Positions 13,630 through 49,782 of a DNA stretch of 55,770 nt are shown here, piece after piece. The stretch is from Candidatus Woesearchaeota archaeon (GTDB lineage Archaea > Nanobdellota > Nanobdellia > Pacearchaeales > UBA284): assembly GCA_964413705.1 (NCBI GenBank), contig CAYPSK010000002.1, positions 1 to 55,770 of the forward strand, in the 5' to 3' direction. Positions within the stretch are counted from its first letter, which is position 1; every line of letters begins with the position of its first letter. The position numbers and the translations under genes are program-made. The notes beneath the pieces were generated by a model. It saw only the letters and a list, made by a program, of their open reading frames with translations. It was not told the DNA's origin and did no database searches.

Positions 13630-13659
13630 TGCCACGTGCTGAAGCACAAAATTGTGGCA
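13630..13659 (+). repeat. GCACAAAA two-level hairpin, copy D
   Basis: Outer stem TGCCAC/GTGGCA, inner mini-hairpin GTGC-TGAA-GCAC, then AAAATT. Lies 14 nt after the stop of 9900..13616 and ~12 nt upstream of a TATA-like CTTATAAAAAAT. Confidence 0.5.
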
Positions 13660-13704
13660 CAAACATGCAATCTTATAAAAAATAAAAATAAAAAAGAGGA
13701 AAAA

Positions 13705-16338
13705 ATGAAAAAAGAAATATTTATCTTATTTATCATGCTGGGTATTCTGGCACTTCCTTTATTCTTTAACCTCTCTTCTGCAACAATAACAAAAGGAACT
13801 CCTTTTTTCAATCTTTCATCATCAATCTGTGGTCCAAGCCAGCCAATTGAGGGTTTTGTTAACTTCTCTTTAAATAATCAGGACTCTGATATAAAGATTT
13901 CTGTTAATTCAAGTTCCTTTCTGAAATCTTTGAAATTAATTGATTTTCTTAAAAAAAGCAGTGCTGTCTTTACATGCAATCCATCATCCTGCCTGCCGAT
14001 ATACAGTTTTGTTTCAGGTTCAGAGCAAGAAAGCAAGAATTTCGATTTAGAGAACTCTGATAAACTTCTTGGAATAAAAATTCAGGGCCTGAATAATGTT
14101 GAAATCAAGAACCTGAGTTTCATAATCAGAGGTTCAAGCAACCAGGAATTTACATGTTCTGAGAGTTTTGTTAGACTAGATGTTCTTGATGATGATGCAA
14201 TAAATTATGAATACACCAGCCCCAATGAAAATAATAATTGCACTGACTTTACAAATTCTTGTTTCTCCATGAGCAATACAGTTGACTTTGACCTTGATTC
14301 AAATCCAAAATGTGAAAAGATTTTCATAGAAAAGACAGGCAAAGTAGACATAGGCGCGTATGTTACTCTTTCATCAGGAGATCCAAGTCAGTTAGTGATG
14401 ACACTCTATGATCCAAAGACAGCAAAGAAATATAATTGCACTATTGGAGAAACTGAGGGGGTGTTAACTGGTTTTAATTTCTGTTCAATAAACTCAGAGA
14501 ATAATCCAAACTTTTTTATTGATGAGGCAAGAGACGTCTATGTATGTATTTCAAATCAAGGAACAGGCCTTTATTCCATAAAAGGAGAATCAGATTATCC
14601 TTGTGGCTTTCTAGGAAGCCCAGAGAGTTTCAATGGGAACTTTTTATTTGACTATCCTATTTATATAAGATACTATGGCTTTTCTCCTATCAGGGGAGGA
14701 GAAGAAATTTTATTTTGGGATTCTAACTTCAGATCAGAGACATCTGAATCACTTATGGCCTATATTCAAGATTATATTAATTCAAGATACTCTGGAAATT
14801 GCTTGTCAGGATGTATAATTCCTATAAATTTTATTGCTAATGGAAAACAAAGCTTGGTTATATCTGACTTAGAACTCAAGTTTACAAGTAATCCAGGAGG
14901 ACCAGCAACTATTAGGACATTTTGGGATATCACTAAGACACCAGTCAGCGTTACAATGCCAAACTCAGTCTTCTCACTAAATGCATTTAATATCTCTGCG
15001 CCCTCAGCAATGGGAGATTATAAATTTATCCTAACTCTAGGAACATCTTCATCAATTCCTTTTAAAGTCTCAAATGTTCCGATTATTCAATCACTCACTC
15101 CTTTATTTATCTCCCCTAATAAACCAACAACATTCTATGCCAGTGTTCAACAATTTCAAAATCCTATTTCAAATTATACCTGGGATTGGGGAGATGGCTC
15201 TCAAGAAACAACCCTAGTTCCAAGTGCAAGCCACACATATTCTGAGGGTTCTTTTACACTGACACTAAAAGTCATAGATTCTTCAAGCTTAATGGGCATT
15301 AGGTCCTTTTTAATAAATACAACAATCACAAAACAAGCTCTTAATCAAACTTATCTTGAGAAGAAGCAGGCATATCAATCTTTGGCATCACTAGGGGACT
15401 CCTGGTATCTTGATTTATTAATTAATAAAACCCTAGTAAATAGCTCCCTAAATGAGGTAGCAACTCTGCTCGAGACATCAAATGACTTATTTTTGATAAA
15501 AGGAAAACTTGATTTGATAATGGTTCCAGTATCTCTAAATGACACCCAAGTTCTCCCAGAATCAAACTATTACCCAAATGTTGAATCAGTCAGCTTTGAT
15601 AAATTATCTGAACTTGGTGCAGGGCAGTATGATTCTTATTACAAAGAGGGCATGTTGAATGAGTTATTGCTCTGGCAGGACCAAGTTACTCTAAAACTTA
15701 GTGGAAGAGTCAAGCAAGTTGTTTTTGATGATTCATCAACTCAAGAAATAACTCTCTTGACAATAAGAATTATTCCGCCTGTCTCAGAAGAAGTTTATTT
15801 TATCTATGACCTGCCTGCCTCCTTGAACAAGGCCCAGATTATGGTAAAAGAGAACATAGCCTTTTTAGACCTAGGTTCTTCGATTGGCGCAAAGTTTTCA
15901 GAAGATGAAACTATAAATATCGCTCTCCCAATAAAACAATCACTAGCTCAGCAGACATTCTATGTCTCGCCATCATTATCAATTTTAGTAAAGGAACAAG
16001 ATTCAGTAAATCCTACAAGCAAGCCAAGCCTAGTTCTCCCAATTATTGTTTTAGTGATTATATTCCTGGCTTTGGTTGTTCTTCTATTTTTAATTTGGAA
16101 AAAGAAATTGCTAGGTTCTGGTTCAAAGTCAAAATCCTCTGCATCTAACTCAGAAGATTTATTTGCAAACCCTTCTGATTTGATGAGCTTAATAAGCTAT
16201 ATTCAGACTAGCCAACAAGAAGGAAAAAATAAAAAGATAATAGAAAAGGAACTTCTAGACAGCGGATGGACAAAAGCCCAGATAAAGTATGCCTATGAGA
16301 ACATGGGCACAGATATTTCCTCATTCAGTATTCAATGA
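13705..16338 (+). CDS. Large surface protein with PKD-like domain and C-terminal TM plus cytoplasmic tail
   Basis: ATG at 13705 is preceded by GAGGA and gives a signal peptide (MKKEIFILFIMLGILALPLFFNLSSA). The listed GTG start at 13636 lies inside the intergenic hairpin. PKD signature YTWDWGDGS...HTY. TM helix LVLPIIVLVIIFLALVVLLFLIW followed by an ~85-aa tail. Confidence 0.8.
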   Translation: MKKEIFILFIMLGILALPLFFNLSSATITKGTPFFNLSSSICGPSQPIEGFVNFSLNNQDSDIKISVNSSSFLKSLKLIDFLKKSSAVFTCNPSSCLPIYSFVSGSEQESKNFDLENSDKLLGIKIQGLNNVEIKNLSFIIRGSSNQEFTCSESFVRLDVLDDDAINYEYTSPNENNNCTDFTNSCFSMSNTVDFDLDSNPKCEKIFIEKTGKVDIGAYVTLSSGDPSQLVMTLYDPKTAKKYNCTIGETEGVLTGFNFCSINSENNPNFFIDEARDVYVCISNQGTGLYSIKGESDYPCGFLGSPESFNGNFLFDYPIYIRYYGFSPIRGGEEILFWDSNFRSETSESLMAYIQDYINSRYSGNCLSGCIIPINFIANGKQSLVISDLELKFTSNPGGPATIRTFWDITKTPVSVTMPNSVFSLNAFNISAPSAMGDYKFILTLGTSSSIPFKVSNVPIIQSLTPLFISPNKPTTFYASVQQFQNPISNYTWDWGDGSQETTLVPSASHTYSEGSFTLTLKVIDSSSLMGIRSFLINTTITKQALNQTYLEKKQAYQSLASLGDSWYLDLLINKTLVNSSLNEVATLLETSNDLFLIKGKLDLIMVPVSLNDTQVLPESNYYPNVESVSFDKLSELGAGQYDSYYKEGMLNELLLWQDQVTLKLSGRVKQVVFDDSSTQEITLLTIRIIPPVSEEVYFIYDLPASLNKAQIMVKENIAFLDLGSSIGAKFSEDETINIALPIKQSLAQQTFYVSPSLSILVKEQDSVNPTSKPSLVLPIIVLVIIFLALVVLLFLIWKKKLLGSGSKSKSSASNSEDLFANPSDLMSLISYIQTSQQEGKNKKIIEKELLDSGWTKAQIKYAYENMGTDISSFSIQ

Positions 16339-16346
16339 AAATTAAC

Positions 16347-16381
16347 TTATCGCTGCGCAATAGCGCACAACGTTGCGATAA
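16347..16381. terminator. Compound GC-containing hairpin between convergent genes
   Basis: TTATCGC...GCGATAA outer inverted repeat enclosing TGCGC-AATA-GCGCA. Located between the stop of 13705..16338 and the stop of 16416..16796. Confidence 0.35.
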
Positions 16382-16415
16382 ATAGACAATATACATTAAG
16401 AGAGTTCTTTAATAT

Positions 16416-16796
16416 TTACTTTCTCAATAGAAGTTGTATCTTTGTCGGGTCTTTCTTAATATCTCTTACGATTGTTGCAGGCCCAACAATAGTTATCGCA
16501 TCCCTATTTCCAGTAAGAGCAGATGCGAACTTCTCTCTCATTGACTGGAAAACAGAAAGTCCCTTGGCTTCAGGAAGAAAACTGACAAGTTCAATTCCCT
16601 TGAATTTTGAAGATTTTCCTATTTTCTTCATAGTTTCCTCAATCAAGTCAGCTTCTTCTTCTGGTTCGAGTTTTCCCTGAATTAATATGATTTTGTCTTC
16701 TGAAACAATATCCAAGAGTTTTTTGACTCTCTTGTAGCTAGTTAGATACGCTACCTCTGCAAATGGAACAAACTGAATTGTTATATCTTTCATCAT
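16416..16796 (-). CDS. DUF2073-like conserved archaeal protein
   Basis: 126 aa. Sits immediately downstream of a small GTPase and divergent from a Zn-ribbon protein. From memory, this triad is a conserved archaeal neighbourhood. Confidence 0.55.
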   Translation of the reverse strand: MMKDITIQFVPFAEVAYLTSYKRVKKLLDIVSEDKIILIQGKLEPEEEADLIEETMKKIGKSSKFKGIELVSFLPEAKGLSVFQSMREKFASALTGNRDAITIVGPATIVRDIKKDPTKIQLLLRK

Positions 16797-16818
16797 TTTT
16801 TCTCTTTTTTTTTTGGGT

Positions 16819-17475
16819 TTAAGTCTTTTTAATTAATCCGAATAATGAATCATAAAATTCTTCTATATTTTTTCCTTGTTTTGCAGATATCCCGACAACA
16901 CCATACTCTGGAAATGCGGCCTCAATTTTCTTTGCATCTGCTCCTTTTAAATCAATTTTATTTGCAGCGATTAAAACAGGAATTTTCCTGGCAACAAGAT
17001 TGCCGATGATTGTTACATTGACTTGGCTATAAGGATTTTTTGTTGAATCCAGGACAACAACAACTGCATCAACATCATCAAGCCATTTGATAGATTCTAT
17101 GACTCCTCGCGTTGCTTCTTTTGCTCTTGATTTAGCTGCTTTCATATTTAATCCAAAGTGCATGAAATCTTCATAATCTATCTTTGTAGCTATGCCTGGC
17201 GTATCAATAATCTTAAAAACAGCTTCCTTGCCTTTATGCGTAACATTGACTTTTTCTTTAAACTGAACATTTCTTGTTTCATGAGGAACTTTAGAAACAC
17301 TCCCAAGTTCTTCTCCTAAGAAATCAATGCATATCTTATTTGCTAGGGTTGTTTTTCCTGCATTCGGCGGACCATAGAATCCGATTTTTACATTTTTCTT
17401 TGTATTGAATATGCCAGAGAATATCCTCCTAAAAAATTTTGCTAAAGCTGATTTTTTATTACTTTCTTTGCTCAT
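16819..17475 (-). CDS. Small GTP-binding protein (Era/EngB-like P-loop GTPase)
   Basis: 218 aa. G1 GPPNAGKTT, G3 DTPG, G4 NKID, G5-like SAK. Confidence 0.8.
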   Translation of the reverse strand: MSKESNKKSALAKFFRRIFSGIFNTKKNVKIGFYGPPNAGKTTLANKICIDFLGEELGSVSKVPHETRNVQFKEKVNVTHKGKEAVFKIIDTPGIATKIDYEDFMHFGLNMKAAKSRAKEATRGVIESIKWLDDVDAVVVVLDSTKNPYSQVNVTIIGNLVARKIPVLIAANKIDLKGADAKKIEAAFPEYGVVGISAKQGKNIEEFYDSLFGLIKKT

Positions 17476-17568
17476 TTTTTGTCCCTATTTTTTTTGCCTC
17501 TGTTTAATTTAATTTAAAATTTGAGGAATATTTAAATCTTGCGCATCGCAGGTTTAAAAGAATTCTAA

Positions 17569-17594
17569 GCGCACGAGTGTAAAATGAAGCGCAC
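17569..17594. repeat. Paired GCGCAC element
   Basis: gcgcac-gagtgtaaaatgaa-gcgcac, hexamers exactly 20 bp apart. Followed by aaatct, as in the 53394 copy. A third GCGCAT lies 28 bp upstream at 17541. Confidence 0.5.
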
Positions 17595-17798
17595 AAATCT
17601 TTATTTTTGAGAGGATCTTTTCTATATCGATAGTAGTTCATGCGGATTAGTGAAAAACCTCGTTATTTATCTGTAATTTTGTTACTGGGCACTGGTTAAA
17701 TGCACACCAATTTCATTTAGATAATCCTAAAAACATTTATATATCTTTTCACCTTTGCGTGATTGCCAAGAAGGAGATAAGTTAAAAATCATAGTGTT

Positions 17799-17838
17799 CT
17801 GAGCAAGACTGCCTCAGCACAAAACCTGTCTTGCTAAG
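17799..17838 (+). repeat. GCACAAAA two-level hairpin, copy A
   Basis: Outer stem AGCAAGAC/GTCTTGCT at 17802-17809/17828-17835, extendable with one mismatch. Inner TGC-CTCA-GCA, then CAAAACCT. Lies just upstream of a TATA-like ATTAAATTATATAT and the ATG at 17869. Confidence 0.55.
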
Positions 17839-17868
17839 AATTAAATTATATATGGGTTTGATTAAAAC

Positions 17869-18387
17869 ATGCCAAATAGATGTGTTAGATGTGGAAAGAT
17901 ATATCAGAATGCAGCTCCAGAGATTTTAACTGGATGTACTTGTGGTTCTCATTATTTCTTCTTCTTTAAAGAAGATGATATCAATTTATTTGAGCAGACA
18001 GATGCCTTGACAAACCAAGAACGTGAGGAGATTCTAGAAGATGTCAAGGGAATTGTTGGAGAAGAGCCAGACAAACCAGTTATTCTGAACTTAGAATCTA
18101 TAAGGATAAAAAAACCAGGGAAATTTGAGATAGACCTAGTTAGTTTATTTAAAGGTGAGCCAGTAATCTATAAGCTTGAAGATGGAAAATATATCATAGA
18201 TCTTGCCTCAACATTCATGCTGAGCAAGCACAAAGTTGAACCTGAAAGAGTTCCAATTCCAGACACAGAATTGATGAAACAAGTAAAGAAAGAACAGGAA
18301 AAAGAATCCAGCGAGTTTGATTTTGAAGATGTCGGGCAAATCAAGACTGAAAAAGAGGAAAAAGGAGATAAAGAGAAAGTGCACTAA
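17869..18387 (+). CDS. Zn-ribbon protein (DUF2072-like) with acidic C-terminal tail
   Basis: 172 aa. N-terminal CVRCG...CTCGS four-Cys ribbon. Divergent from the GTPase/DUF2073 pair. Confidence 0.6.
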   Translation: MPNRCVRCGKIYQNAAPEILTGCTCGSHYFFFFKEDDINLFEQTDALTNQEREEILEDVKGIVGEEPDKPVILNLESIRIKKPGKFEIDLVSLFKGEPVIYKLEDGKYIIDLASTFMLSKHKVEPERVPIPDTELMKQVKKEQEKESSEFDFEDVGQIKTEKEEKGDKEKVH

Positions 18388-18404
18388 TGCAAACTAAATC
18401 GCAT
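18379..18404. repeat. Paired GYGCAY element (degenerate), overlapping a stop codon
   Basis: gtgcac-taatgcaaactaaa-tcgcat, 19 of 26 positions identical to the 53394 copy. Overlaps the last two codons and the stop of 17869..18387. Confidence 0.45.
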
Positions 18405-18440
18405 AAAGAATTATTCTAGTCAATATTTTTATCTTAACTA

Positions 18441-19154
18441 TCAGCCCATATAGTCTAGATTTCTCTGAACTTTCAGGTCCTTGGCCTCATTGACTTTACC
18501 CATCAAATCTTTCAACTTAACTTCCATTTCCTTTGCCTTATTCATCAAAGGGTCAGTATCAAGTTTTAAGTTCAAGTATTTATCCAAAGAATCTACAAGC
18601 TTCGCAGCAGCTTTATTATCAGGCATCTGAGAGTGTGCCTCGACAAACAAGCAGGACAATGGTGTTGAAGCTTTCATCAATAATGCCCCTGTAACCCCCA
18701 TGATTATTCCCTCCTCTAAAGGGAGAATTTTTAATTTATTCATCCTGTCTCCACAGCTTTTTGTCTTTGAAAAGAAGAATACTTTTGGCTCTTTGCTGAC
18801 TATTTGTGAATTAACTCCCTCTAAACCTATAATCTCTTTTATCTTCAATTGTTTTGCAAGTTCATTGACGGTTTCAGCTATTTCCCACTCAAGTCCATCA
18901 ACAGGAGTTACAGCCTGCACAATAACCAAGTTTGTCTTTTTATCATAAAATATTCCTAAAGGATTTATTACTTGGCCTTTATGTATTGCCGCTATAGGCT
19001 GAATCTTGTCAGAACTTATCATGCCAATCTGCTTTGCATTAAGATGTTTAATCAAAAACTCAGTAGCTATCGTTGAGACAAAACCAAACCCCGGGAAGCC
19101 CTCAATCATTATAGGTTTTGTTGTCGGTTTTTCTGTCAACTCGATTTTAAGCAT
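18441..19154 (-). CDS. PAC2-family proteasome assembly chaperone-like protein
   Basis: 237 aa. N-terminal IEGFPGFGFVSTIATEFLIKHL matches the archaeal PAC2 family signature (EGxPGxGxVG..A..yL). Confidence 0.7.
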   Translation of the reverse strand: MLKIELTEKPTTKPIMIEGFPGFGFVSTIATEFLIKHLNAKQIGMISSDKIQPIAAIHKGQVINPLGIFYDKKTNLVIVQAVTPVDGLEWEIAETVNELAKQLKIKEIIGLEGVNSQIVSKEPKVFFFSKTKSCGDRMNKLKILPLEEGIIMGVTGALLMKASTPLSCLFVEAHSQMPDNKAAAKLVDSLDKYLNLKLDTDPLMNKAKEMEVKLKDLMGKVNEAKDLKVQRNLDYMG

Positions 19155-19399
19155 TTTTCACCTTTTTAATATAGAATATATGCGCTCGTCTTTTTAAATC
19201 TTTCTTAAATTCTAACAGAAATTCCAGTTTCTTTTAATTCAAAGCAAAGAAATTGCAGATTCATATAGGCAGTATTTCAAGATTTTATGGAAAGCATCAA
19301 AATAAAGAGCCGAAAGATTTAAATACACATATATATCTAATAGTTATAAGTTGATAATTAAAAGTAATCAATAAGTAAATATCCCAAACCCTACTAAAA

Positions 19400-19672
19400 A
19401 TGAAACAAATATTACAAAAACCTGAACACTGGCCCACATTGAACACAGTAATAATGGTAGAGAAAACTCTAAAGAAAATGAATGAAAGTGTGGTTAAAGT
19501 GTCAGACTTAAAAAGAAAACTTCCAAGGCAGGTTAATCATAATACTCTATTATTAATTCTCAAATATCTTGAACAGAGTAATAAAATCTTAGTAACACTA
19601 AGCGGAATAACCTGGATTCACAATACAAATTCAAATCTGAGAAAAGCCCTCAATAAAGGCCTTGAAATCTAG
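19400..19672 (+). CDS. Hypothetical small protein (possible winged-helix)
   Basis: 90-aa ORF directly upstream of the RelE/ParE-like remnant. No firm motif. Confidence 0.4.
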   Translation: MKQILQKPEHWPTLNTVIMVEKTLKKMNESVVKVSDLKRKLPRQVNHNTLLLILKYLEQSNKILVTLSGITWIHNTNSNLRKALNKGLEI

Positions 19673-19684
19673 AATCTTATTAAA

Positions 19685-22193: not shown

Positions 22194-23576
22194 ATGACAA
22201 ACAACAACCTTATTTACATTGAAACCTATGGGTGCTCAGCTAATCAGAATAATACTGAGATTATGAAAGGCTTGCTTCTAAGTCATGGTTTTAATGTAGT
22301 TGAAACAGAGGCTCTTGCAGACATAATAATCTTAAATACCTGTGTTGTTAAAGAGCCGACAATCAAAAAAATAGAAGATAGAATAAAAAATATTGTAGAA
22401 AAAAATAAAAAACTCATCATAACAGGTTGTATGCCCGAAGTTCTAGAGAAAAAATTGACAAGGCTCTGCCCAAGAGCCTCGATAGTCGGAATAAATCATA
22501 TAAAAGAGATCTCAAACATAGTCAAGAAGTTGATTGAAGGCGAACAAGTCAAGATTCTTGAAAAAAGTAATGAAATCAAGCTTTGCACACCAAAGACAAG
22601 GCTAAAGAATGTGGTTGGAATAACCCAAATCGCTCAAGGCTGTCTTGGTTCATGCGCATACTGTTATACGCGGCTTGCAAAAGGCTCTCTTTTTTCATAT
22701 CCTGAAGACAAAATTCTAAAGAACATCGAGCAAGACATAGCTGCAGGATGCAAAGAGATTTGGCTTACAAGTCAAGACAATGCTTCCTATGGTCTTGATT
22801 TTAAAGATAGAGCAGAGTTATCTGATAAAAATAGGGGTTTTGTAACGTTGTGCACAGCACCAAAACCAGAAAAAAAAAGATTAGCACATACTCCAAAATC
22901 TCAGCTTCCTAGACTTATCAATTCCATAACTTCCCTTCCCCACAGATTCTTTCTTAGAATAGGGATGATGAATCCTAAAAATGTCCTTTCCCTCCTTGAT
23001 GAGCTGATGGAATCTTATAAAGATGAAAAAGTATTTAAATTTCTTCACATCTCGCTTCAATCTGGCTCAGATAAAATTCTCAAAGCAATGAATCGAAATT
23101 ACAAAGTCCAGGATTTTTTAGATATAATAAACAGGTTCACAGAAGCATTTCCAAATATCACAATAAGTACAGATATAATTGTTGGTTTTCCTGGAGAAAC
23201 AGAAGAAGATTTTCAAGACACCCTAGATATAATAAAAAAAATAAAGCCCGATGTCCTGAATATCTCGAGATTCTGGGCCATGGAAAAAACTGAAGCAAAG
23301 AAAATGCCAAATCAAATATCTCCAGAGATTAAGAGAAAAAGAGCAACAGAACTTATGAAATTGCACGCTAAAATAGCTCTTGAAAATAAAAAGCTCCTAA
23401 TTGGCCAACACTGCAAGGTTCTTGTCGATTCCAAGGGATTTCAAGATACGTGGATCGCAAGAGATGATTCATACAAGATGATTATCATAATTTCAAAAGA
23501 AAATCTGGCAGGTAAGTTCTTGAAGGTCTTGGTAAAGGAGGCAAAGCCCCACTATCTGATTGGCGAGCTAGTCTAG
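22194..23576 (+). CDS. Radical-SAM methylthiotransferase, MiaB/MtaB (CDKAL1-like) family
   Basis: 460 aa. N-terminal UPF0004 domain (YIETYGCSANQ), radical SAM CLGSCAYC (CxxxCxxC), C-terminal TRAM-like region. Carries a ~40 aa insertion (DKNRGFVTLCTAPKPEKKRLAHTPKSQ). Confidence 0.85.
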   Translation: MTNNNLIYIETYGCSANQNNTEIMKGLLLSHGFNVVETEALADIIILNTCVVKEPTIKKIEDRIKNIVEKNKKLIITGCMPEVLEKKLTRLCPRASIVGINHIKEISNIVKKLIEGEQVKILEKSNEIKLCTPKTRLKNVVGITQIAQGCLGSCAYCYTRLAKGSLFSYPEDKILKNIEQDIAAGCKEIWLTSQDNASYGLDFKDRAELSDKNRGFVTLCTAPKPEKKRLAHTPKSQLPRLINSITSLPHRFFLRIGMMNPKNVLSLLDELMESYKDEKVFKFLHISLQSGSDKILKAMNRNYKVQDFLDIINRFTEAFPNITISTDIIVGFPGETEEDFQDTLDIIKKIKPDVLNISRFWAMEKTEAKKMPNQISPEIKRKRATELMKLHAKIALENKKLLIGQHCKVLVDSKGFQDTWIARDDSYKMIIIISKENLAGKFLKVLVKEAKPHYLIGELV

Positions 23577-29349: not shown

Positions 29350-29351
29350 AA

Positions 29352-32371: not shown

Positions 32372-32400
32372 GGTTTTGTGCCGATGCAGTCTTGCTTGAG
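32372..32400 (-). repeat. GCACAAAA element, copy C (inverted orientation, outer stem degenerate)
   Basis: The reverse complement CTCAAGCAAGACTGCATCGGCACAAAACC matches copy A at 23 of 25 core positions. The downstream flank ATTAAATT is also shared with copy A. Inner stem TGC-ATCG-GCA is retained, but no clear 3' outer arm is present. Confidence 0.45.
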
Positions 32401-32512
32401 TTATATTCAATAGTTTCGTTTCAGAACATTTCAAATTGAGGAAGGTTAAGAAGGAGTAAGAATTAGTGATATGTCATCAATCATGTTCTTACATCATCAA
32501 AAAGTAAGAAGA

Positions 32513-32559
32513 GGGCCAGCCAGGAAGTTTTGCACACCTCTTTTCAACTTGGCTGGCCC
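32513..32559 (+). ncRNA. GC-rich 10-bp stem-loop followed by a T-rich tract (candidate ncRNA 3' end or terminator)
   Basis: GGGCCAGCCA (32513-32522) pairs perfectly with TGGCTGGCCC (32550-32559). The loop is 27 nt, followed by CTATATTTTATTAGGTTTTT. It stands out in a 320-bp AT-rich intergenic region ~200 nt after the cdc48 stop. Confidence 0.3.
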
Positions 32560-32634
32560 CTATATTTTATTAGGTTTTTCTCCACAATAGATTTAAAAGC
32601 ATTTTTCCTTTAAAGTGATTGGAGAAAAGAAAAA

Positions 32635-43505: not shown

Positions 43506-43517
43506 TATCTGGGGCGA

Positions 43518-44396
43518 TTATAACGTAAGCACAAACAAATAATTAGTCATTCTTATTATTGCATTGTTCAGCTCATGTAGGTAAGGCCCAAAAGGTTTTT
43601 TCTTGTCTATCTTATTTTTTATTCTTTCATACTCTTTCGCAAAAGCCACAGCATCTTCTTTTTTGAAATTTAGGAACAGTTTTCTGAACATATCTAAGAA
43701 CTTTCTCAATGCTTTGATGTTCTCTATCTCCCCTTCTGTTATTCTTGTCTTTTCTTGAGCAAGTATAGCCACTGATTTTATTATATCCCCAACCTCTTCT
43801 AGATCATTTATTATTCCATAGACTTGTGAAGTCTTTGAAGGGTCGTCATAACCTTTTCTATTCAAGACTCTTAAACAAAAATTAACAAATTTATTTACAG
43901 AAGCGTCTATCTCTATAATCGGTTCAAGATTTTGCTTCTTCTCAAGCGCATTGATTAGCTCTTCAACCATAGAATCTAAAATAAGGAATATTCTGGCTAT
44001 TATATACACAATATTTTGCTCGCTTGCTTCAGTTATATCTTTTATAATAATAGTATTTTGCGTCTGCTTCATTATCTCAAATCCAAGAAGCTCACTCAAA
44101 ACTCTCCTTTGAAAATCCTTTATTTCATTGTGGTTTGAAAAATTCACTTCAATCTCATCAACTCCTCGGATATACAAAGATAATAAAACTCTATTGACTA
44201 ATGGATGATATCCTGAAATATCAATCTTAACAATATTTTTCTCTTTTTTAGCATGTTCTGCACATATAATCAAATTTTTTCCATTTTCCGTAACATCAAT
44301 TTCATCTCCTTTCTTGAGATTATTCCCTCTTGCCCATTTGCTTGGCAAGCTTATCATAAGTGTTGCTGCTCCTTGCTTGACGATTTTTCTTTTCAT
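43518..44396 (-). CDS. AbrB/SpoVT domain + PhoU domain regulator (archaeal PhoU-like)
   Basis: 292 aa. N-terminal KIVKQGAATLMISLPSKWARGNNLKKGDEIDV (AbrB fold), followed by a helical two-repeat PhoU-like region. Transcribed divergently from the 44583 operon. Confidence 0.75.
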   Translation of the reverse strand: MKRKIVKQGAATLMISLPSKWARGNNLKKGDEIDVTENGKNLIICAEHAKKEKNIVKIDISGYHPLVNRVLLSLYIRGVDEIEVNFSNHNEIKDFQRRVLSELLGFEIMKQTQNTIIIKDITEASEQNIVYIIARIFLILDSMVEELINALEKKQNLEPIIEIDASVNKFVNFCLRVLNRKGYDDPSKTSQVYGIINDLEEVGDIIKSVAILAQEKTRITEGEIENIKALRKFLDMFRKLFLNFKKEDAVAFAKEYERIKNKIDKKKPFGPYLHELNNAIIRMTNYLFVLTL

Positions 44397-44445
44397 TTTA
44401 TTTCATAAAAACTCAAAGAACAGCTATTTATAAACTTTTTGTTTT

Positions 44446-44458
44446 TGTATATACTTTT
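44446..44458 (+). promoter_or_regulatory. Shared promoter-region motif TGTATATACTTTT (copy 2)
   Basis: Identical 13-mer to 40477-40489. Lies in the divergent region between the AbrB-PhoU gene and the 44583 operon. A 10-bp (one bulge) inverted repeat TGTTACCATT/AATGGTAAACA follows at 44521-44552. Confidence 0.4.
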
Positions 44459-44582
44459 ATACTAGTATATATAGTATAATAAAAAAGTATAAATGTCATA
44501 ATTTCTGATTATAATTAGGTTGTTACCATTAAAGAGTAACCAATGGTAAACAAAACAGAACAAAACATTGAGGAAAAACAAA

Positions 44583-45152
44583 ATGACTGAACAAAGAACA
44601 ACTGAAGCAAAAAAATCAGCTGGAAATGATTTAGCAGTATATATGCCACACACTTTAGACATTGTAGGCCATATAAAAAGATTAGAGAAACCTATTAGCT
44701 CAATTAATCCAGAAAGTAGAATAGTATCAAATGGCAGCATGTATGCTGGGGGATTTTGCGATTTAACATTTAATCCGGAGCGTATTGGTGGGAGAGCATA
44801 TGTTCGATTCTTAAAAGCATTAGAAAGTATTCCTAAAAACTCTTCGCTAACAACTAGACTAAATTTTGCTTTATTTGGAGAGAATCCAAAAGTTGATGAT
44901 AATCTTGTCGTAGAACACGATGGAAGAAAGTACCAACAGCAATGGGTTGTAAGAACATCTCAATATGAAACAATTGTTTCATTATATAGGTATCAAGAAA
45001 ATAAACATGTAACAGGAGATTTTCCATTGAAATTAAAAGCATTAGTTGCAGAAGAAGTAAAAGAACTATGGACAAATGAATTATTGCTTTCTCTTTTTGC
45101 TCCATTAATGAACCCTCTTATTCAAACACATCAACAGATGATGCAATTTTAA
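44583..45152 (+). CDS. Hypothetical soluble protein (operon gene 1)
   Basis: ATG at 44583 (MTEQRTT...) is preferred over the listed TTG at 44568. 189 aa with no recognisable motif. Confidence 0.5.
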   Translation: MTEQRTTEAKKSAGNDLAVYMPHTLDIVGHIKRLEKPISSINPESRIVSNGSMYAGGFCDLTFNPERIGGRAYVRFLKALESIPKNSSLTTRLNFALFGENPKVDDNLVVEHDGRKYQQQWVVRTSQYETIVSLYRYQENKHVTGDFPLKLKALVAEEVKELWTNELLLSLFAPLMNPLIQTHQQMMQF

Positions 45153-45212
45153 AATAAAATCAAACAATAAATCAAAATCAAAAAACAAATTAAATAAACA
45201 AGGAGGATAAAA

Positions 45213-45908
45213 ATGAACCAAATAAAGAAAGCAGTATTAGTTGGATTATGTCTAGCAACAGCATATGCTGCAGCTGAAACAATAGGAACTGTCAAAGGAA
45301 TCAGAGAAGGTGTTGATGGAGCTTACTTTCATCAAGCAAGAGTCGCATTATCTCAAGATGGAAGTGTTGCAGCTAAAGTAGGGGTGAAATTTCCAGTTGG
45401 TCCTGTTAATGTAGATTTACTTGGATGTTATACTGGAAACCCAAGTCTTACAGCAGCTGTTTTAGGAGACAGATTTGGAATTGAAGGAACTTTAACAGAT
45501 GGAATGAAAACAGCAACTTTAGAAGGAACAGCTTTAGGATGCATGGCACAAGGAACTTTAACATCAACTGAAGAAGGTTTATCACAAAAACTTAGGGTTT
45601 CACATGCACAGCAACTTGAAAACTTGACAGCACAACTAGGAGCAAGTGTAACAAGAAATACAGGCAATGCATACACACTTGGAGCAGATGTTTTCTTGTT
45701 AAATGCAACAAAAATTGGAAGCACAAGTTTGTTCCCATATGTTGGAGCATCACTAGGAAAAGACATTTTAGGTTACAAATTTGCTGGTTGTGTTATTGCA
45801 CCTAAGGAAAGCAAGGTTTCGCTAAAAACTACATTAGGCAATGGTGGAAACTTGACTGACTTAAAAGCATACACTGCTGGTTTAGAAGTAAGAGCAGGTC
45901 TTGATTAA
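45213..45908 (+). CDS. Secreted Gly/Thr/Ala-rich, beta-strand-rich protein (operon gene 2)
   Basis: 231 aa. AGGAGG 6 nt upstream. Sec-type signal KKAVLVGLCLATAYAAAE. Alternating hydrophobic/polar strands (AYTLGADVFLL, LKAYTAGLEVRAGL) are reminiscent of beta-barrel or beta-sandwich proteins. Followed by a long T-tract. Confidence 0.6.
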   Translation: MNQIKKAVLVGLCLATAYAAAETIGTVKGIREGVDGAYFHQARVALSQDGSVAAKVGVKFPVGPVNVDLLGCYTGNPSLTAAVLGDRFGIEGTLTDGMKTATLEGTALGCMAQGTLTSTEEGLSQKLRVSHAQQLENLTAQLGASVTRNTGNAYTLGADVFLLNATKIGSTSLFPYVGASLGKDILGYKFAGCVIAPKESKVSLKTTLGNGGNLTDLKAYTAGLEVRAGLD

Positions 45909-45910
45909 AA

Positions 45911-45933
45911 TTTTTTATTTTTTTATTTTTTTT
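45911..45933 (+). terminator. Oligo-T tract (archaeal-type terminator/attenuator) inside the operon
   Basis: TTTTTTATTTTTTTATTTTTTTT begins 3 nt after the stop of 45213..45908. Confidence 0.4.
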
Positions 45934-45989
45934 AAAAATTTCCCAAACTCTCAGGAAAAATGTGATGATTAAAATGGAAATGAAAGAAA

Positions 45990-46364
45990 ATGACAGACAA
46001 TCTAGAAACAACAACAAAGAAAGAAAGTAGAGATGTCAACCTAAATGTACTAGCAGGTTTACTCTGCTTATTTTCGTCTAGCTATTTTCTTGGTTTCGGA
46101 ATCAGCTATATTTCAGAGTATTATAATGGTATCGCTGCTATTAAAAGTGCAATTTATTCAAGAGCAACAGAAATAACACCAGAGATAATAAGCCAAGCAA
46201 CTGAAACTGCATACAAACTTACAACATCAAATCATAGTCTTTTTTATGGAGTTAGCTTAATTATGGGAGCTGGGTTGATTGCAGGTTTTGGTTTTTATAA
46301 TCTTAGTAGAGCAGCACTACATGATGTGCCATTGGAAAATAAAAAGAAGGAGGAAGCAAAATGA
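45990..46364 (+). CDS. Two-TM membrane protein (operon gene 3)
   Basis: 124 aa. Hydrophobic segments VLAGLLCLFSSSYFLGFGISYI and LFYGVSLIMGAGLIAGFGFY. Confidence 0.55.
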   Translation: MTDNLETTTKKESRDVNLNVLAGLLCLFSSSYFLGFGISYISEYYNGIAAIKSAIYSRATEITPEIISQATETAYKLTTSNHSLFYGVSLIMGAGLIAGFGFYNLSRAALHDVPLENKKKEEAK

Positions 46365-46954
46365 CTGAAGAACATAACCCAGAAAGAGATAAAGTAAAAA
46401 GAAGAAGTACAGTAGACAGAACAAAACATGCATATAACTTAATGGTGTGTGAGATTAGATGTCATAAAAGACTAGAACCATTATATGAAGATGAAAAATC
46501 ATATGTTACCCATAATGTTTTATTCAGGAGATTAAATAAAATAGATTCTCGTTTTCAATTTAGGGGAAGTAATGAATTATGGGCCAATGTAAATGTGGAT
46601 TGTTCACGTTTAGATTCTAAATATTCAAGTGCAGGAGTTGATTTTGATTATAAGTCAACACATCTTGAATATCTTTTTGAAAGAGATTATCCTGCATCCC
46701 TATCTTATGTACTTTCGAAATTAGGGATAAGTTTAGGAGTCCAAGGAAGAACTTTTTATTTTTATTCTCCAGATGATCACCCAACTGTTGGTGATGAAAT
46801 CAAAGACACTGTATCAGAATGTTACAATAATTTACTGAGAATAGAACAATTCTTGAAAAATGGAGCATATGAACTTTTAAAAAGAAAAAAGGAAGAAAAA
46901 TTACAAGAAATTGTAGAAGAGCTTCGTCCTCTTTTGCCGGAGGCAGGAAAATGA
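46361..46954 (+). CDS. Hypothetical soluble protein (operon gene 4)
   Basis: 197 aa. ATGA start/stop overlap with the previous gene. GGAGG 7 nt upstream. Confidence 0.55.
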   Translation: MTEEHNPERDKVKRRSTVDRTKHAYNLMVCEIRCHKRLEPLYEDEKSYVTHNVLFRRLNKIDSRFQFRGSNELWANVNVDCSRLDSKYSSAGVDFDYKSTHLEYLFERDYPASLSYVLSKLGISLGVQGRTFYFYSPDDHPTVGDEIKDTVSECYNNLLRIEQFLKNGAYELLKRKKEEKLQEIVEELRPLLPEAGK

Positions 46955-47364
46955 CAAAAGCAAAACAAAAGCCAGATGAATTGACCTTGGATGAATGCAT
47001 CAAACTAGCAAAAATGGTTCCAGCCGAGGCGTGGCAAAAAACATTTAGAAAAGAAGAATATCCTAGACCTAACTCGGAGGCTTATCTAGCAAGTTACGAA
47101 TCTTTTAGAATCAAAGTTTCAGGATATCCAAGTTATGGTGATTCTTATGTTGAAGTATACTCACAAGGTTCATGCATGACAGGGTGGTACAGTGAATCAA
47201 ACTCTAGACTAGAAAATAAACTAGATAAGTTAAATAGGTTTATTAAAGAAAAACATGAAAATTATCAATTCGCAAGAAGACATAATCAACTAAAAACAAT
47301 AGAAGGTCAGGAAAGAATTAGTGAGGTTGCAAGAGCAAGAGCTTTGTTAAGGAGGGGAAAATGA
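46951..47364 (+). CDS. Hypothetical soluble protein (operon gene 5)
   Basis: 137 aa. ATGA overlap. GGAGG 7 nt upstream. Confidence 0.55.
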   Translation: MTKAKQKPDELTLDECIKLAKMVPAEAWQKTFRKEEYPRPNSEAYLASYESFRIKVSGYPSYGDSYVEVYSQGSCMTGWYSESNSRLENKLDKLNRFIKEKHENYQFARRHNQLKTIEGQERISEVARARALLRRGK

Positions 47365-47618
47365 CAGAACGAATATATTTTGTAGATGATTGGGGAAGTA
47401 GGCTTTTGAAATATAACATAGCGGTTAATAAGTTCCATGCTACACTGGATTTTTTCAAAGAAGATTTTCCTATTGTGTCTAATTATTGCTTGGGACTTGC
47501 TTCAAGAGCAGTCAAAGAACCAACATTTACAGAAATATTACACAAACTCCATCAAAACGGATTTAATCGGGGGGATATGAAAGCTGTAAAAGGGTTGATT
47601 CAAATGAATTTTATGTAG
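47361..47618 (+). CDS. Hypothetical small protein (operon gene 6)
   Basis: 85 aa. ATGA overlap. GGAGG 5 nt upstream. Confidence 0.5.
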   Translation: MTERIYFVDDWGSRLLKYNIAVNKFHATLDFFKEDFPIVSNYCLGLASRAVKEPTFTEILHKLHQNGFNRGDMKAVKGLIQMNFM

Positions 47619-47798
47619 GTTATGTAGATATCAGAGAACCTGAACAAGATGACTTACAACACAAACGTGTTATGTCTGCTATTCCCTCAGTAGCCAGATT
47701 TAATCTTATATATACTATTATGAAAGCTCCCTTATTTCATGGAGATTTTATAAGTGCAGTTGGATTGGGATTGAAAGTATTTACTTAAGGAGTAAAAA

Positions 47799-48137
47799 AT
47801 GACAATAAAAAAACATCTGCCAAGCATTACAAGCACATTAGTTCTTGGTGGTTCAATATTATTTTGTTTTGCTGCGGGAATTGTTGAAACCATCCCTAAT
47901 TGGAGATTGATAAATTATTATAATCGAGCTTTGACATTTTATGCAGATACAAGTGGAAATGGAAGAATAGAGCCTGATGAGGAAACCAAATTCTTAGATG
48001 ATTTTGTTGCAGATGTAAGAAAACTTCCAGGTTATGAAGATTTTAGATTAAGGGCGGAAGACATTCCAAAATCTAGTGTAGATGCCAAAACAATCCTTCC
48101 CTTGATGCAAGAATATCGTCCTGTTCCAACCTTCTGA
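47799..48137 (+). CDS. Membrane-anchored protein with a canonical EF-hand Ca-binding loop (operon gene 7)
   Basis: 112 aa. N-terminal TM (LVLGGSILFCFAAGIV). The loop DTSGNGRIEPDE (nt 47946-47981) fits DxSxNGxIxxxE. GGAG 6 nt upstream. Confidence 0.55.
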   Translation: MTIKKHLPSITSTLVLGGSILFCFAAGIVETIPNWRLINYYNRALTFYADTSGNGRIEPDEETKFLDDFVADVRKLPGYEDFRLRAEDIPKSSVDAKTILPLMQEYRPVPTF

Positions 48138-48239
48138 GGTAAAGCATATATCTTTTAATTGAGCACAATCTTTTTAAACTACTCTTTCTAAAAAAGGATA
48201 GATTAAAAAAGTCAATAAAAAAGGGTAAGGAACAAGAAA

Positions 48240-48512
48240 ATGTCTGACGAAAAAATAAAAATAGCTATGATGTCTGCTGCATCAAAAGCACTAGCCTACA
48301 AGAAAATAAATGCCCGGGCAGATCAAGAAGAGATTCTGCAGTTTGTCATGAATGACATGAGGGTAAGAGGACAGGAGAAAATAGGCGCAATGGTAGCAGC
48401 AAGCAAGGCTCTGAAATATAAAGAAGAAGAAAGTGACCTAAATGACAAGAAGATTATGCAGAAAGTCATGGATGATGCTAATGATATCCTCATGACAATG
48501 AGTATAGAATAA
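48240..48512 (+). CDS. Small protein made of two ~33-aa tandem repeats (operon gene 8)
   Basis: 90 aa. IAMMSAASKALAYKKINARADQEEILQFVMNDM and IGAMVAASKALKYKEEESDLNDKKIMQKVMDDA are clearly homologous. Confidence 0.5.
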   Translation: MSDEKIKIAMMSAASKALAYKKINARADQEEILQFVMNDMRVRGQEKIGAMVAASKALKYKEEESDLNDKKIMQKVMDDANDILMTMSIE

Positions 48513-48579
48513 ATTCCTCCCTAAAGAATCTTCTTAAATATAGACTAAAATGTGTCTATCTATATCTAATTAACATAAA

Positions 48580-48605
48580 GCGCACTATTACTAGACTAGG
48601 CGCAT
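48580..48605. repeat. Paired GCGCAY element
   Basis: gcgcac-tattactagactag-gcgcat, hexamers exactly 20 bp apart, in the intergenic region. Confidence 0.5.
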
Positions 48606-48729
48606 GAATATGCTAAAGATTAATCTAGAATAACTTATACATCTTTTTTATATAACTCATATCTAAGCCCTATTTCCCTATTATACTGCAAATAGTTAGA
48701 TTTTTAAGCCCTACCTTATTATACTGAAA

Positions 48730-49323
48730 ATGCAATATTGCGAAAGATGTGGCGCAAGGCTTATAGGGGATAAATGCCACAAGTGTGGAAAGAGCTATGA
48801 AAAAGTCAAGAACTTAGACATAGTTAAGCATACTGTAAATAAACAGATGCAAAGGCACGGCATAAGGCTTCCAACCACACCAAGACTAGTGATAATCTTA
48901 GCAATACTAGCTATCGCTGTTCTCCTTTCTTATATTATATTCTCTAAAGAGAAAACCCCAGACACAAGTTCTGTTCTCTCAAGAATCCAGAGTCAAGTTA
49001 CACAATCAACTCAACCAACATCCTCAGCTCAGACCCAGGCAGAGAATACTCCAACAAGAGCCTCTCTAAGAGTTTTTCATCAAATGGTTAATCAATTTGG
49101 AGGAACTCTAGGTTGTTTTGGCAGGGTTGATGGCGGAGTCACAAATACAGGCTCAATAGATGCCCAGGGCGTTAGGGTGATTTGCACAGCAGAAGAAGTT
49201 TCCTCTCAAAAAGATCTTGGAATGATAAAAGCAGGAGATACTCAGGCTTTTCAAGTCATCTTGAATTATGACTGTGAGCACATGAGAACAGAGGATTGCA
49301 CAGTAACATGCTCAAACTGCTGA
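48730..49323 (+). CDS. Zn-ribbon / single-TM / Cys-containing extracytoplasmic domain protein
   Basis: 197 aa. YCERCGARLIGDKCHKCG at the N-terminus, TM LVIILAILAIAVLLSYIIF, Ser/Thr/Gln linker, C-terminal domain with 5 Cys. Confidence 0.55.
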   Translation: MQYCERCGARLIGDKCHKCGKSYEKVKNLDIVKHTVNKQMQRHGIRLPTTPRLVIILAILAIAVLLSYIIFSKEKTPDTSSVLSRIQSQVTQSTQPTSSAQTQAENTPTRASLRVFHQMVNQFGGTLGCFGRVDGGVTNTGSIDAQGVRVICTAEEVSSQKDLGMIKAGDTQAFQVILNYDCEHMRTEDCTVTCSNC

Positions 49324-49369
49324 GAAAGGAAAGTAATAATTTTAAGAGTTAAGTAGAAAAGATAATTAG

Positions 49370-49405
49370 TTCAGCCATGCCCAACGGCACAAAATTGTGG
49401 CTGAA
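49370..49405 (+). repeat. GCACAAAA two-level hairpin, copy E
   Basis: Outer stem TTCAGCCA/TGGCTGAA (8 bp), inner TGCC-CAAC-GGCA, then CAAAATTG. Shares the 15-mer GCACAAAATTGTGGC with copy D. Lies 47 nt after the stop of 48730..49323 and just upstream of the TATA-like TTTATTAATATATAA. Confidence 0.55.
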
Positions 49406-49436
49406 AAGTTTATTAATATATAACCCTTTATCTAAA

Positions 49437-49664
49437 ATGGAAGAAGAAAAACAAGAATACCAAAAAGAGAATAAGCAAGAAGAGAAGCCAAAAAAGAAAC
49501 TTGTGCTAGATGCTTCTTCTATTATCATGATTGTCTCTCTTATCTTGATTTTCTTGACAACCATTGCCAATAATGCCAAACTCTTATCAGCTTGGATTGC
49601 CTGGCCACTATTAGGCATTTTCTTGGCATGCATGATTTTGGCTATGTTCATAAAAAGAAAGTAG
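49437..49664 (+). CDS. Small membrane protein
   Basis: ATG at 49437 (MEEEKQEYQ...) is preferred, because the listed start at 49377 lies inside hairpin E. Two hydrophobic segments. Confidence 0.45.
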   Translation: MEEEKQEYQKENKQEEKPKKKLVLDASSIIMIVSLILIFLTTIANNAKLLSAWIAWPLLGIFLACMILAMFIKRK

Positions 49665-49751
49665 TTTATTTTTATGAATGCTGAAAATTCCTAATTTTCA
49701 AGCATTTTTGCCAAAGAGAAATAAATACAAGGTTGAGAAGAAGGAATAAAC

Positions 49752-49782
49752 ACAAGACTGCCTCAGCACAAATATGTCTTGT
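49752..49782 (+). repeat. GCACAAAA two-level hairpin, copy B
   Basis: Outer stem ACAAGAC/GTCTTGT, which differs from copy A by compensatory changes (G>A paired with C>T). The 19-mer AAGACTGCCTCAGCACAAA is identical to copy A. Lies between convergent genes. Confidence 0.55.

Follow-up and report, generated by a model that had tools for sequence, protein, structure and literature searches.

The analysed window comprises 55.8 kb of DNA from a small, uncultivated DPANN archaeon of the Pacearchaeota/Woesearchaeota type, and it contains seven copies of a short hairpin element (Table 1). Five of these, A to E, had been described in the initial annotation, and checking of the sequence placed each of them exactly where it had been reported. 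Two further copies, F and G, were found by a descriptor scan of the window, so that the family is real, shares a conserved core and is larger than first noted.

Table 1. Copies of the hairpin element in the window; segments are given in the order outer 5' arm, inner 5' arm, loop, inner 3' arm, bulge, outer 3' arm.
Copy	Positions	Strand	Segments	Remark
D	13630..13659	+	TGCCAC GTGC TGAA GCAC AAAATT GTGGCA	
F	16347..16381	+	TTATCGC TGCGC AATA GCGCA CAACGTT GCGATAA	new
A	17802..17835	+	AGCAAGAC TGC CTCA GCA CAAAACCT GTCTTGCT	
G	22836..22867	-	GGTTTTG GTGC TGT GCAC AACGTTA CAAAACC	new
C	32372..32400	-	AGCAAGAC TGC ATCG GCA CAAAACC	decayed; segments listed are intact, 3' arm degenerate
E	49370..49405	+	TTCAGCCA TGCC CAAC GGCA CAAAATTG TGGCTGAA	
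B	49752..49782	+	ACAAGAC TGC CTCA GCA CAAATAT GTCTTGT	

Copy D lies 13 nt past the stop codon of the gene for a 1238-aa cysteine-rich surface protein and 42 nt ahead of the next start codon, and copy F, between convergent genes, follows the stop codon of a PKD-domain surface protein gene by 8 nt. The divergent spacer of OapA and OapC harbours copy A, 33 nt ahead of the OapC start codon. Copy E is found 46 nt past a stop codon and 31 nt ahead of the next start codon, while copy B is located between the gene for a small membrane protein and the convergent AlaRS gene. Copy C is flanked by the CDC48 and MBL genes and runs antisense to both. Copy G is located in a radical-SAM methylthiotransferase gene (22194-23576), antisense to it and within its variable linker; the stretch encodes GFVTLCTAPKP. 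The genes neighbouring copies of the family are functionally unrelated and encode surface proteins, Oap proteins, AlaRS, a synthetase of the AspRS/AsnRS type, a deaminase, a methyltransferase and a UPF0047 protein.

The elements are 30-36 nt long, mostly intergenic, solitary two-tier hairpins. An outer stem of 6-8 bp, the sequence of which is free between copies, encloses an invariant TGC/GCA clamp that closes a loop of 3-4 nt, and a one-sided 3' bulge of 5-8 nt always opens with CAA. In some copies AACGTT is present, within the bulge only. When the architecture was combined with the GCACAA core, 8 descriptor matches were obtained in the window, whereas dinucleotide shuffles predicted 0.03; without the core, there was no enrichment of the architecture (138 observed versus 164 in shuffles). 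The density of about one copy per 6.5-8 kb extrapolates to roughly 100 copies per Mb at least.

Copies A, B, D and E folded exactly into the two-tier hairpin that had been described, both as RNA (z -2.2 to -3.2) and as DNA, the latter on either strand. For copy C the earlier description stood in part: the 5' arm and the core are kept, but the 3' arm is degenerate. This copy scored 16 bits (E 0.14) and is regarded as a relic, because its folding was no better than that of shuffled sequences (z 0.09). It is the only relic among 19 loci, which form a small sample from partial genomes.

In a model-based alignment, 96.5% of the cells were paired, compared with 30-54% when the partners were slid against each other. 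All six outer pairs showed changes on both sides, and the covariation score of 0.529, as against 0.150 in shuffles, was reached by none of 500 shuffled alignments. The proposed covariation of the outer stems was thus borne out, and a true compensatory change was found in the step from GCAAGAC/GTCTTGC to GCAAGAT/ATCTTGC. The inner mini-hairpin had also been thought to covary, which proved incorrect: all three inner pairs never vary, the TGC/GCA clamp being invariant and extra pairs merely being added.

Copies B and E turned out to be orthologous between the window species and a sister species. In the orthologous E copies, only the loop (CAAC in the window, TAAA in the sister species) and the tail of the bulge (AA and CG, respectively) differ, and the orthologous B copies differ solely in the bulge tail (TAT to CGC). 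Taken together, none of 50 stem and CAA positions changed in these two pairs, whereas 7 of 17 positions in loops and tails did (Fisher p = 2.2e-5). When copies of the CAAGAC subfamily were compared in pairs, they differed by 0-8% in the outer 5' arm and the inner stem, by 44% in the loops and by 62% in the tails; the value of 24% for the outer 3' arm is inflated by one misregistered copy. These comparisons show that persisting copies are under purifying selection on both stems, the TGC/GCA clamp and the CAA that opens the bulge, with the loop and the tail left free. Both the covariation and the confinement of changes in orthologous copies to unpaired positions support the earlier suggestion of selection for structure.

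Most copies lie shortly past stop codons in sense orientation, in agreement with the initial annotation; at nine independent loci the distance is 0-46 nt. At all 5 loci where the flanking genes converge or where a gene is followed by a long spacer, the element abuts the gene to which it is sense. Several details had to be corrected. Copy B, which had been counted among those close to a stop codon, is 87 nt away from it in the window; in the sister species, where a 58-nt insertion is missing, the distance is 2 nt. The distance of copy E from the TATA-like box is about 4 nt rather than 10-15 nt, and such adjacency to TATA boxes would be expected where genes are packed tightly. Three intergenic copies are antisense to their Pfam-confirmed neighbours, namely C as well as s2 and s3 in L064, and they have kept the strand-specific CAA bulge. 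They fit a role in mRNA poorly, and an effect at the level of the DNA strand is conceivable. Two copies reside inside a coding region, G and its counterpart in the linker of the orthologous radical-SAM gene of the sister species (L125 4504-4534), in opposite orientations, the latter being sense. Nearly all copies within each contig are on one strand, a coherence that G and C break in the window, and the closest pairs, E and B at 347 nt and s10 and s11 at about 560 nt, have the same orientation.

The search was extended to relatives of the window species. At least 11 further copies were found in roughly 72 kb of sister-species sequence, and a third relative contributed one copy (L218 3507-3536). 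Neither a stem-agnostic descriptor nor the covariance model gave a convincing match in 1.17-1.2 Mb from 79 other species of Pace-, Woese- and Nanoarchaeota. Among 185,579 species genomes, the CAAGAC pattern with its 22 specified bases matched the MAG of the sister species only, and the pattern of a second subfamily matched this MAG and two bacterial sequences, of which the one inspected is devoid of the outer stem. Viral contigs yielded no pattern match. Across the genomes searched, the family is restricted to the window species and two close relatives.

The CAAGAC...GTCTTG stem recurs at eight unrelated loci in two species and a stem of the GGTTTTG...CAAAACC type at three loci, while D and E have a common stem type. 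A and B share an identical core of 20 nt, one more than the 19 nt first counted, and their 3' flanks are alike at about 15 of 20 nt. Because identical stems within subfamilies occur at unrelated loci, they arose by copying. Together with one clean indel of about 35 nt, these stems show that the copied unit is essentially the hairpin itself. Comparison of orthologous sites revealed turnover: copy D is absent or decayed beyond recognition in the orthologous spacer of the sister species, copy F is missing there from a spacer that is about 36 nt shorter, and the site of copy A is empty in the relative L124, while in the sister species L125 a member of another subfamily occupies it. Within the time that species take to diverge, copies are gained, lost or replaced. 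The view of the element as a conserved 3' UTR motif of particular genes could not be upheld, as the family is confined to three close species and its copies come and go.

We judge the chances to be about even that the elements are lineage-specific, REP-like dispersed hairpin repeats under structural selection, which most likely act at mRNA 3' ends or gene boundaries. A putative RNA role is likely for most copies. The clamp and the CAA bulge would form the recognition surface for a trans-acting protein, which would read the single-stranded fold rather than duplex DNA. In most cases the mRNA would be the folded molecule, with the copies in sense orientation 2-46 nt past the stop codon and close upstream of the next promoter. 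The hairpin might mark or protect the transcript 3' end, or it might insulate the downstream unit in a tightly packed genome. To reach new sites, the hairpin would require a factor that copies or inserts it. Pfam scans covered 50 window genes and 10 genes of the sister species, and no transposase or other candidate partner gene was present within the roughly 130 kb examined from genomes of roughly 1 Mb. A more specific proposal, which we put forward tentatively, is that the clamp and the CAA bulge are read by an undescribed hairpin-specific protein of DPANN archaea. Such a protein might form, terminate or protect 3' ends at a signal free of a U-tract, or might copy and insert bare hairpins of 30-36 nt via ssDNA without RAYT-type tags.

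Of the alternatives, a selfish ssDNA mobile element without any role for the host survives best, and we regard it as rather unlikely. The hairpin would then be the substrate of an HUH/Y1-type enzyme, similar to the TnpA of IS200/IS605 or to RAYT, or of another hairpin-specific enzyme with its gene elsewhere in the genome. Insertion would occur in the template of the lagging strand, with cleavage or recognition at the CAA bulge. The presence/absence differences between the sister species including the clean indel, the linker insertions in either orientation, the three gene-antisense copies, which are co-oriented with neighbouring copies in L064, the confinement to one lineage and the folding as DNA on either strand are all consistent with this explanation, and IS200-type Y1 transposases that act on subterminal hairpins exist in archaea (PMC6006769). 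However, selfish copies should decay evenly, and the old copies B and E are intact in both species, with a relic at only one of the 19 loci. In addition, a Y1/HUH gene was absent from the roughly 130 kb of DNA examined, the flanks show neither target-site duplications nor a conserved tetranucleotide tag nor doublets, and G and C break the strand coherence in the window.

It is quite unlikely, in our estimation, that the elements form a cis-regulatory RNA motif of the IRE kind, in which a lineage-specific RNA-binding protein would govern a post-transcriptional regulon and copies would have been recruited rather than spread. A free stem sequence combined with invariant unpaired and junction nucleotides is the signature of protein-recognised RNA hairpins, and the purifying selection on orthologous copies and the mostly sense positions near stop codons would be in accord with such a motif. 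Yet the neighbouring genes have no function in common, and the identical stems at unrelated loci show copying and not independent recruitment. Furthermore, some copies are antisense, some lie within coding sequence, and copies have been lost or gained at orthologous genes of the sister species.

A site that acts at the DNA level, either as a cruciform or as a duplex bound by a nucleoid, topology, replication or transcription factor, seems very improbable. Intergenic positions that often abut BRE/TATA regions, the origin-associated OapABC genes in the window and the strand coherence within contigs could be explained in this way, but a duplex-binding protein would give no reason for the covariation of the outer arms, established DNA biophysics predicts that stems of 6-8 plus 3 bp with a one-sided bulge of 6-8 nt extrude poorly as a cruciform, and the copies are spread across the whole window and not clustered as at an origin. 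Lastly, chance hairpins in AT-rich intergenic DNA would account for the lack of enrichment of the bare architecture, but are refuted by the excess of core-bearing matches over shuffles and by the covariation, and the recurrence of core and stems in two other species also speaks against them.

DPANN archaea have tiny, tightly packed genomes and are not cultivable alone, and their non-coding elements have hardly been explored. A private family that is mobile and yet structurally selected shows that even such reduced genomes keep, and perhaps exploit, REP-like elements, and it offers a compact and well-defined sequence with which a protein partner can be sought. If the elements act at mRNA 3' ends, they would bear on the separation of adjacent transcription units in archaea that lack hairpin-dependent terminators. 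In practical terms, the family can be used as a marker at species level when this lineage is binned or its strains are tracked.

The family was compared with known systems of structured elements. Consistent with the initial impression that the motif is not a known one, Rfam 15 gave no match at any element, neither at gathering scores nor up to E = 10. A bulge-helix-bulge motif consists of two 3-nt bulges on opposite strands, 4 bp apart, a K-turn has tandem sheared G-A pairs beside a 3-nt bulge, and a SECIS element combines a GAA/A internal loop with an in-frame UGA. By inspection, all three, including the archaeal SECIS, were rejected for the elements, which have a single one-sided bulge and lack both a G-A tandem and a GAA/A loop. 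On the 3' side the flanking sequence is rich in A (aagaatt, taagaat, caaaca, aaagtt, atagac) without a T5 run after any window copy, and because a U-tract is lacking the hairpins are not classic terminators. MITEs, which span about 50-500 bp and have conserved TIRs and TSDs, were dismissed on the basis of the short element length, the absence of flanking direct repeats and the outer arms that differ between subfamilies.

Integron attC sites are also conserved in structure and variable in sequence, lie 3' of ORFs, consist of two helices split by unpaired bases and are read as ssDNA. However, they are 55-140 nt long and have foot cores (RYYYAAC/GTTRRRY), defined extrahelical bases and cassette arrays near intI, none of which is found here, and they were rejected in view of the element length, the absence of a conserved foot sequence and the absence of a tyrosine recombinase in the Pfam scans. 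In RNA hairpins such as the IRE and the MS2 operator, the stems covary freely, while the bulge and the closing pairs, which are presumably contacted by the protein, are invariant. The logic of the elements would be the same, but IRE/MS2-type hairpins denote a functional regulon, do not spread through the genome by copying and have no similarity to the family in sequence or dimensions.

The subterminal hairpins of IS200/IS605, a family that occurs in archaea (PMC6006769), are likewise small and imperfect, and they are read as ssDNA via unpaired bases and short sequences adjacent to the foot. They form the left and right ends around a transposase gene, which is often accompanied by tnpB; the elements described here are solitary and have no such gene nearby. 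The archaeal REP-like palindromes of the RepRanger survey (PMC12306157) are also intergenic hairpin repeats and not intrinsic terminators; they were defined by loose energetic and positional criteria in a small number of cultivated phyla, and neither the present motif nor DPANN is mentioned in the available sections of that survey.

The closest resemblance is to bacterial REP elements, which are likewise short (20-40 nt) imperfect palindromes with an internal irregularity in the stem and a variable loop. They too are intergenic, often past stop codons or between convergent genes and occasionally within genes, and they are lineage-specific, form subfamilies and vary in presence among close relatives with preservation of pairing. 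The roles proposed for REPs include those of an mRNA 3' stabiliser or a terminator, according to three publications (PMC3733652, PMC3116915, PMC12306157). Among all copies there is no GTAG/CGTC REP tag, the feet and flanks sharing no tetranucleotide, and inverted REPIN doublets and BIME clusters do not occur, as every copy is solitary. REP/REPIN systems count tens to hundreds of copies per genome and are mobilised by a cognate RAYT (Y1 HUH transposase), whose gene usually has REPs at its sides. The Pfam-scanned genes include no RAYT gene, and RAYT-type subclasses have been reported only from bacteria (PMC6006769). In summary, the family is similar to bacterial REP elements, yet its architecture is distinct: conservation is internal, covering the clamp plus the CAA bulge (TGC...GCACAA), the sequence of the outer stem is free, and the host is a DPANN archaeon.

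The five hairpin copies described in the initial annotation (A to E) were all recovered at the reported positions, and for A, B, D and E the described fold was reproduced exactly, as RNA and as DNA on either strand. Copy C retains A's 5' arm and core; its 3' arm is gone and it folds no better than shuffled sequences, and it is thus a relic. A descriptor scan added two further copies, F and G, in the window. In the shared plan, an outer stem of 6-8 bp and free sequence encloses an inner part consisting of TGC (sometimes with one or two additional pairs), a loop of 3-4 nt, and GCA. An unpaired tract is present on the 3' side only, in which CAA always comes first, followed by 2-5 variable bases and then the outer 3' arm. 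When the core was included as a requirement, the descriptor matched 8 times in the window versus 0.03 expected from dinucleotide shuffles, whereas the two-tier architecture without the core was not enriched over such shuffles. An Rfam search at the elements gave no match at gathering scores nor up to E = 10. MAFFT failed to align all subfamilies in structural register, and therefore a covariance model (R1) was built from 8 copies of one architecture. Its E-values are rough and, because it is biased to the CAAGAC stem, the census was made with a stem-agnostic Python descriptor. The total sample comprised 19 loci, from fragments of three uncultivated genomes.

Coordinates of the mapped features
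Feature	Position	Strand	Context and evidence
Hairpin copy F	window 16347-16381		8 nt 3' of a stop codon; descriptor scan
Hairpin copy G	window 22836-22867	minus	within a radical-SAM methylthiotransferase gene; descriptor scan
OapB-OapA-OapC conserved gene cluster	window 16416-18387		
OapC promoter region, three states	window 17733-17868; L124 590-620; L125 9715-9870		
tRNA gene (124 nt; the length implies a long intron)	window 63-186	minus	Rfam, 54 bits; missed by ARAGORN

The window has a G+C content of 34%, promoters of the leaderless TATA type, and housekeeping genes for ArgRS, LeuRS, AlaRS, CDC48 and purine biosynthesis; it also encodes the archaeal origin-associated proteins OapA, OapB and OapC as well as two very large surface proteins, Cys-rich or with PKD domains. 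The genomes closest to it are MAGs that carry the labels Woesearchaeota, Pacearchaeota or Nanoarchaeota, and the source is therefore a DPANN archaeon. DNA identical to the window is contained in several metagenome assemblies.

The element family is confined to one lineage at the level of a genus. A first scan of the genome collection used 15 specified bases only and yielded mostly chance matches in bacteria; it also revealed the MAG of a sister species, CAYZTH01 (L064), which is syntenic with the window at a nucleotide identity of 75-85% and contains 11 clear copies in about 72 kb. The pattern of the commonest subfamily, CAAGAC TGC NNNN GCA CAAA N3-4 GTCTTG (22 specified bases), had four matches among 185,579 species represented by one genome each, all of them in CAYZTH01, and in the metagenome collection all its matches were in contigs either of the CAYZTH01 species or of the population to which the window belongs. 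The pattern of a second subfamily was confined to the sister MAG, plus two bacterial matches (L211 and L213); the one inspected, L211, had no outer stem and was rejected as a chance match. A third relative, L218, whose MBL protein is 79% identical, has one copy, 6 nt past the end of a gene for a small membrane protein, counted from its stop codon. No convincing copy was found with the stem-agnostic descriptor and the covariance model in 1.17-1.2 Mb of 79 other Pace-, Woese- and Nanoarchaeota species, and viral contigs contained zero copies of either main subfamily. In the literature, we found no account of this motif or of Pace/Woesearchaeota repeat families.

At nine independent loci, namely D, F, E, B, the sister-species copies s8, s9, s10 and s11, and the L218 copy, the element is in sense orientation 0-46 nt past a stop codon, and in convergent or long spacers it always adjoins the gene to which it is sense. 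In divergent spacers, the elements of two loci (A/s6 and s1) are sense and are located 33-44 nt 5' of the start codon; as a leaderless promoter needs the roughly 31-44 nt that separate the element from the next start codon, this spacing reflects packing and not a promoter role. Three intergenic copies, C, s2 and s3, are antisense to their neighbours, and the genes beside s2 and s3 were confirmed with Pfam. Nearly all copies within each contig are on one strand. The sense bias is real, but not absolute, and gene direction and replication direction are inseparable on these fragments. There are no T runs 3' of the hairpins, and a terminator was rejected because T5 runs past stop codons are neither general in the window nor tied to the elements. 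Inspection by eye revealed no consistent pattern across copies for a loop-to-bulge pseudoknot, a target-site duplication, or a flank-templated loop or tail. The antisense copies, together with the coherence of strands within contigs, make a single-stranded-DNA mechanism a live alternative, in which an IS200/IS605- or RAYT-like enzyme would act at the replication fork. The approximately 130 kb examined contain no gene for a candidate enzyme.

Identical stems at unrelated loci, hairpin-sized indels, a relic, and in-frame intragenic copies mark the family as a dispersed repeat for which copying is ongoing or recent. Compared with the sister species, copy F corresponds to an indel of about 36 nt, and the D spacer of that species contains no recognisable copy. 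The sister species has a counterpart of copy G (L125 4504-4534) in the corresponding hypervariable linker of the methylthiotransferase, in the opposite orientation. Three states were found for the OapC promoter region. In the relative L124, the ancestral TATA box is immediately 5' of the start codon and no element is present; the window has about 105 additional bases, which include element A as well as a second TATA-like box; and in the sister species the insert is a different one, which holds a copy of the GGTTTTG subfamily. The ancestral box is still upstream in both long forms. As A and B have about 15 of 20 bases 3' of the stem in common, including a TATA-like TWTATAT, the promoter-proximal OapC box of the window may have arrived together with element A. 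A regulatory RNA that serves specific genes is unlikely, given that the genes next to the copies are functionally unrelated and that individual genes do not consistently keep their copy.

Covariation had been claimed for both levels of the hairpin, and it turned out to hold for the outer stem, but not for the clamp formed by TGC and GCA. In a model-based alignment of 17 distinct sequences, 96.5% of the cells were paired, versus 30-54% when the partners were slid; changes on both sides occurred in 6 of 6 outer pairs, and the covariation score was 0.529 versus 0.150 in shuffles, 0 of 500 of which reached it. The three clamp pairs did not vary. Because the copies are paralogous, the covariation reflects pairing that was kept during subfamily divergence, and is silent on which molecule is concerned. 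Binding of a protein to duplex DNA leaves it unaccounted for. More informative are copies B and E, which are orthologous, each occupying one site that the window and the sister species have in common. In these pairs, 7 of 17 positions in the loop or bulge tail had changed, versus 0 of 50 in the stems and the CAA (Fisher p = 2.2e-5). The CAAGAC subfamily behaved alike: the inner stem was identical in every copy, the outer 5' arm was 8% different, the outer 3' arm differed by a counted 24% that is inflated by one misregistered copy, and pairwise differences amounted to 44% in loops and 62% in tails. One clean compensatory change, C-G to T-A, was found among the copies. Thus, in persisting copies the fold, the clamp and the CAA are under purifying selection.

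Several additional features were recorded in the window. Three tandem perfect palindromes of 18 nt (ATAGATAAATTTATCTAT, the third being ATAGACATAATTATCTAT), spaced by 4-5 nt and preceded by a run of seven Cs, are present at 9010-9082 in the 283-nt divergent spacer between the genes for an Obg-like GTPase and a nucleotidyltransferase. This is also where the genes switch strand and the cumulative GC skew reaches its minimum; the palindromes could represent an array of operators or a site resembling an origin. Neither an Orc1/Cdc6 gene nor an ORB-like repeat was seen beside the OapB/A/C cluster. The 8-mer AAGCGCAC occurs on the plus strand at 17567, 17587, 48578 and 53392, always intergenic (4 versus 0.38 expected). 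In the CDC48-MBL spacer, a minus-strand block at 32478-32575 contains a GC-rich 11-bp hairpin, GGGGCCAGCCA ... TGGCTGGCCCC around AAGTTGAAAAGAGGTGTGCAAAACTTCC, with AATAAAATATA before and TGATGATGTAAGAACATGAT after it. It shares about 90% identity with L218 3277-3425, whereas the neighbouring protein there is only 79% identical; Rfam gave no match, and the block may be an unannotated small RNA gene. Ten consecutive small plus-strand ORFs without Pfam match fill 44568-49664 in a cassette-like layout, yet without integrase or attC features, and elements E and B each follow one of them. Compared with the sister species, the window has 58 nt inserted at 49665-49722. This insertion contains a 13-bp hairpin of another kind (AATGCTGAAAATT / AATTTTCAAGCATT), which has no second copy in the DNA examined, and introduces an early stop that shortens the small membrane protein by about 15 codons.

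The best-supported reading is that the family represents a REP-like dispersed hairpin repeat with an anatomy of its own, for which copying, lineage restriction, turnover and structural selection were observed. A protein would recognise the clamp together with the CAA bulge in a single strand that has folded, which for most copies would be the 3' end of an mRNA. Possible roles of the hairpin there are to protect this end, to define it, or to shield the next promoter.

With regard to known systems, the target hairpin of diversity-generating retroelements, integron attC sites, and SECIS, K-turn and BHB motifs were all rejected on anatomical grounds. Bacterial REPs are imperfect hairpins, intergenic and occasionally intragenic, lineage-specific, and with proposed RNA roles (PMC3733652, PMC3116915). 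For archaea, loosely defined REP-like palindromes are mentioned in one report (PMC12306157), and reports of RAYT-type enzymes, the transposases of REPs, are from bacteria only (PMC6006769). In contrast to REPs and REPINs, the present family has neither the foot tag GTAG or CGTC nor the doublet arrangement, and no RAYT gene was found near the copies in the roughly 130 kb examined. Size, the imperfect hairpin, location, lineage specificity and proposed RNA roles are common to both. Therefore, we do not class the family as a member of the REP/REPIN group, but regard it as one that works like a REP.
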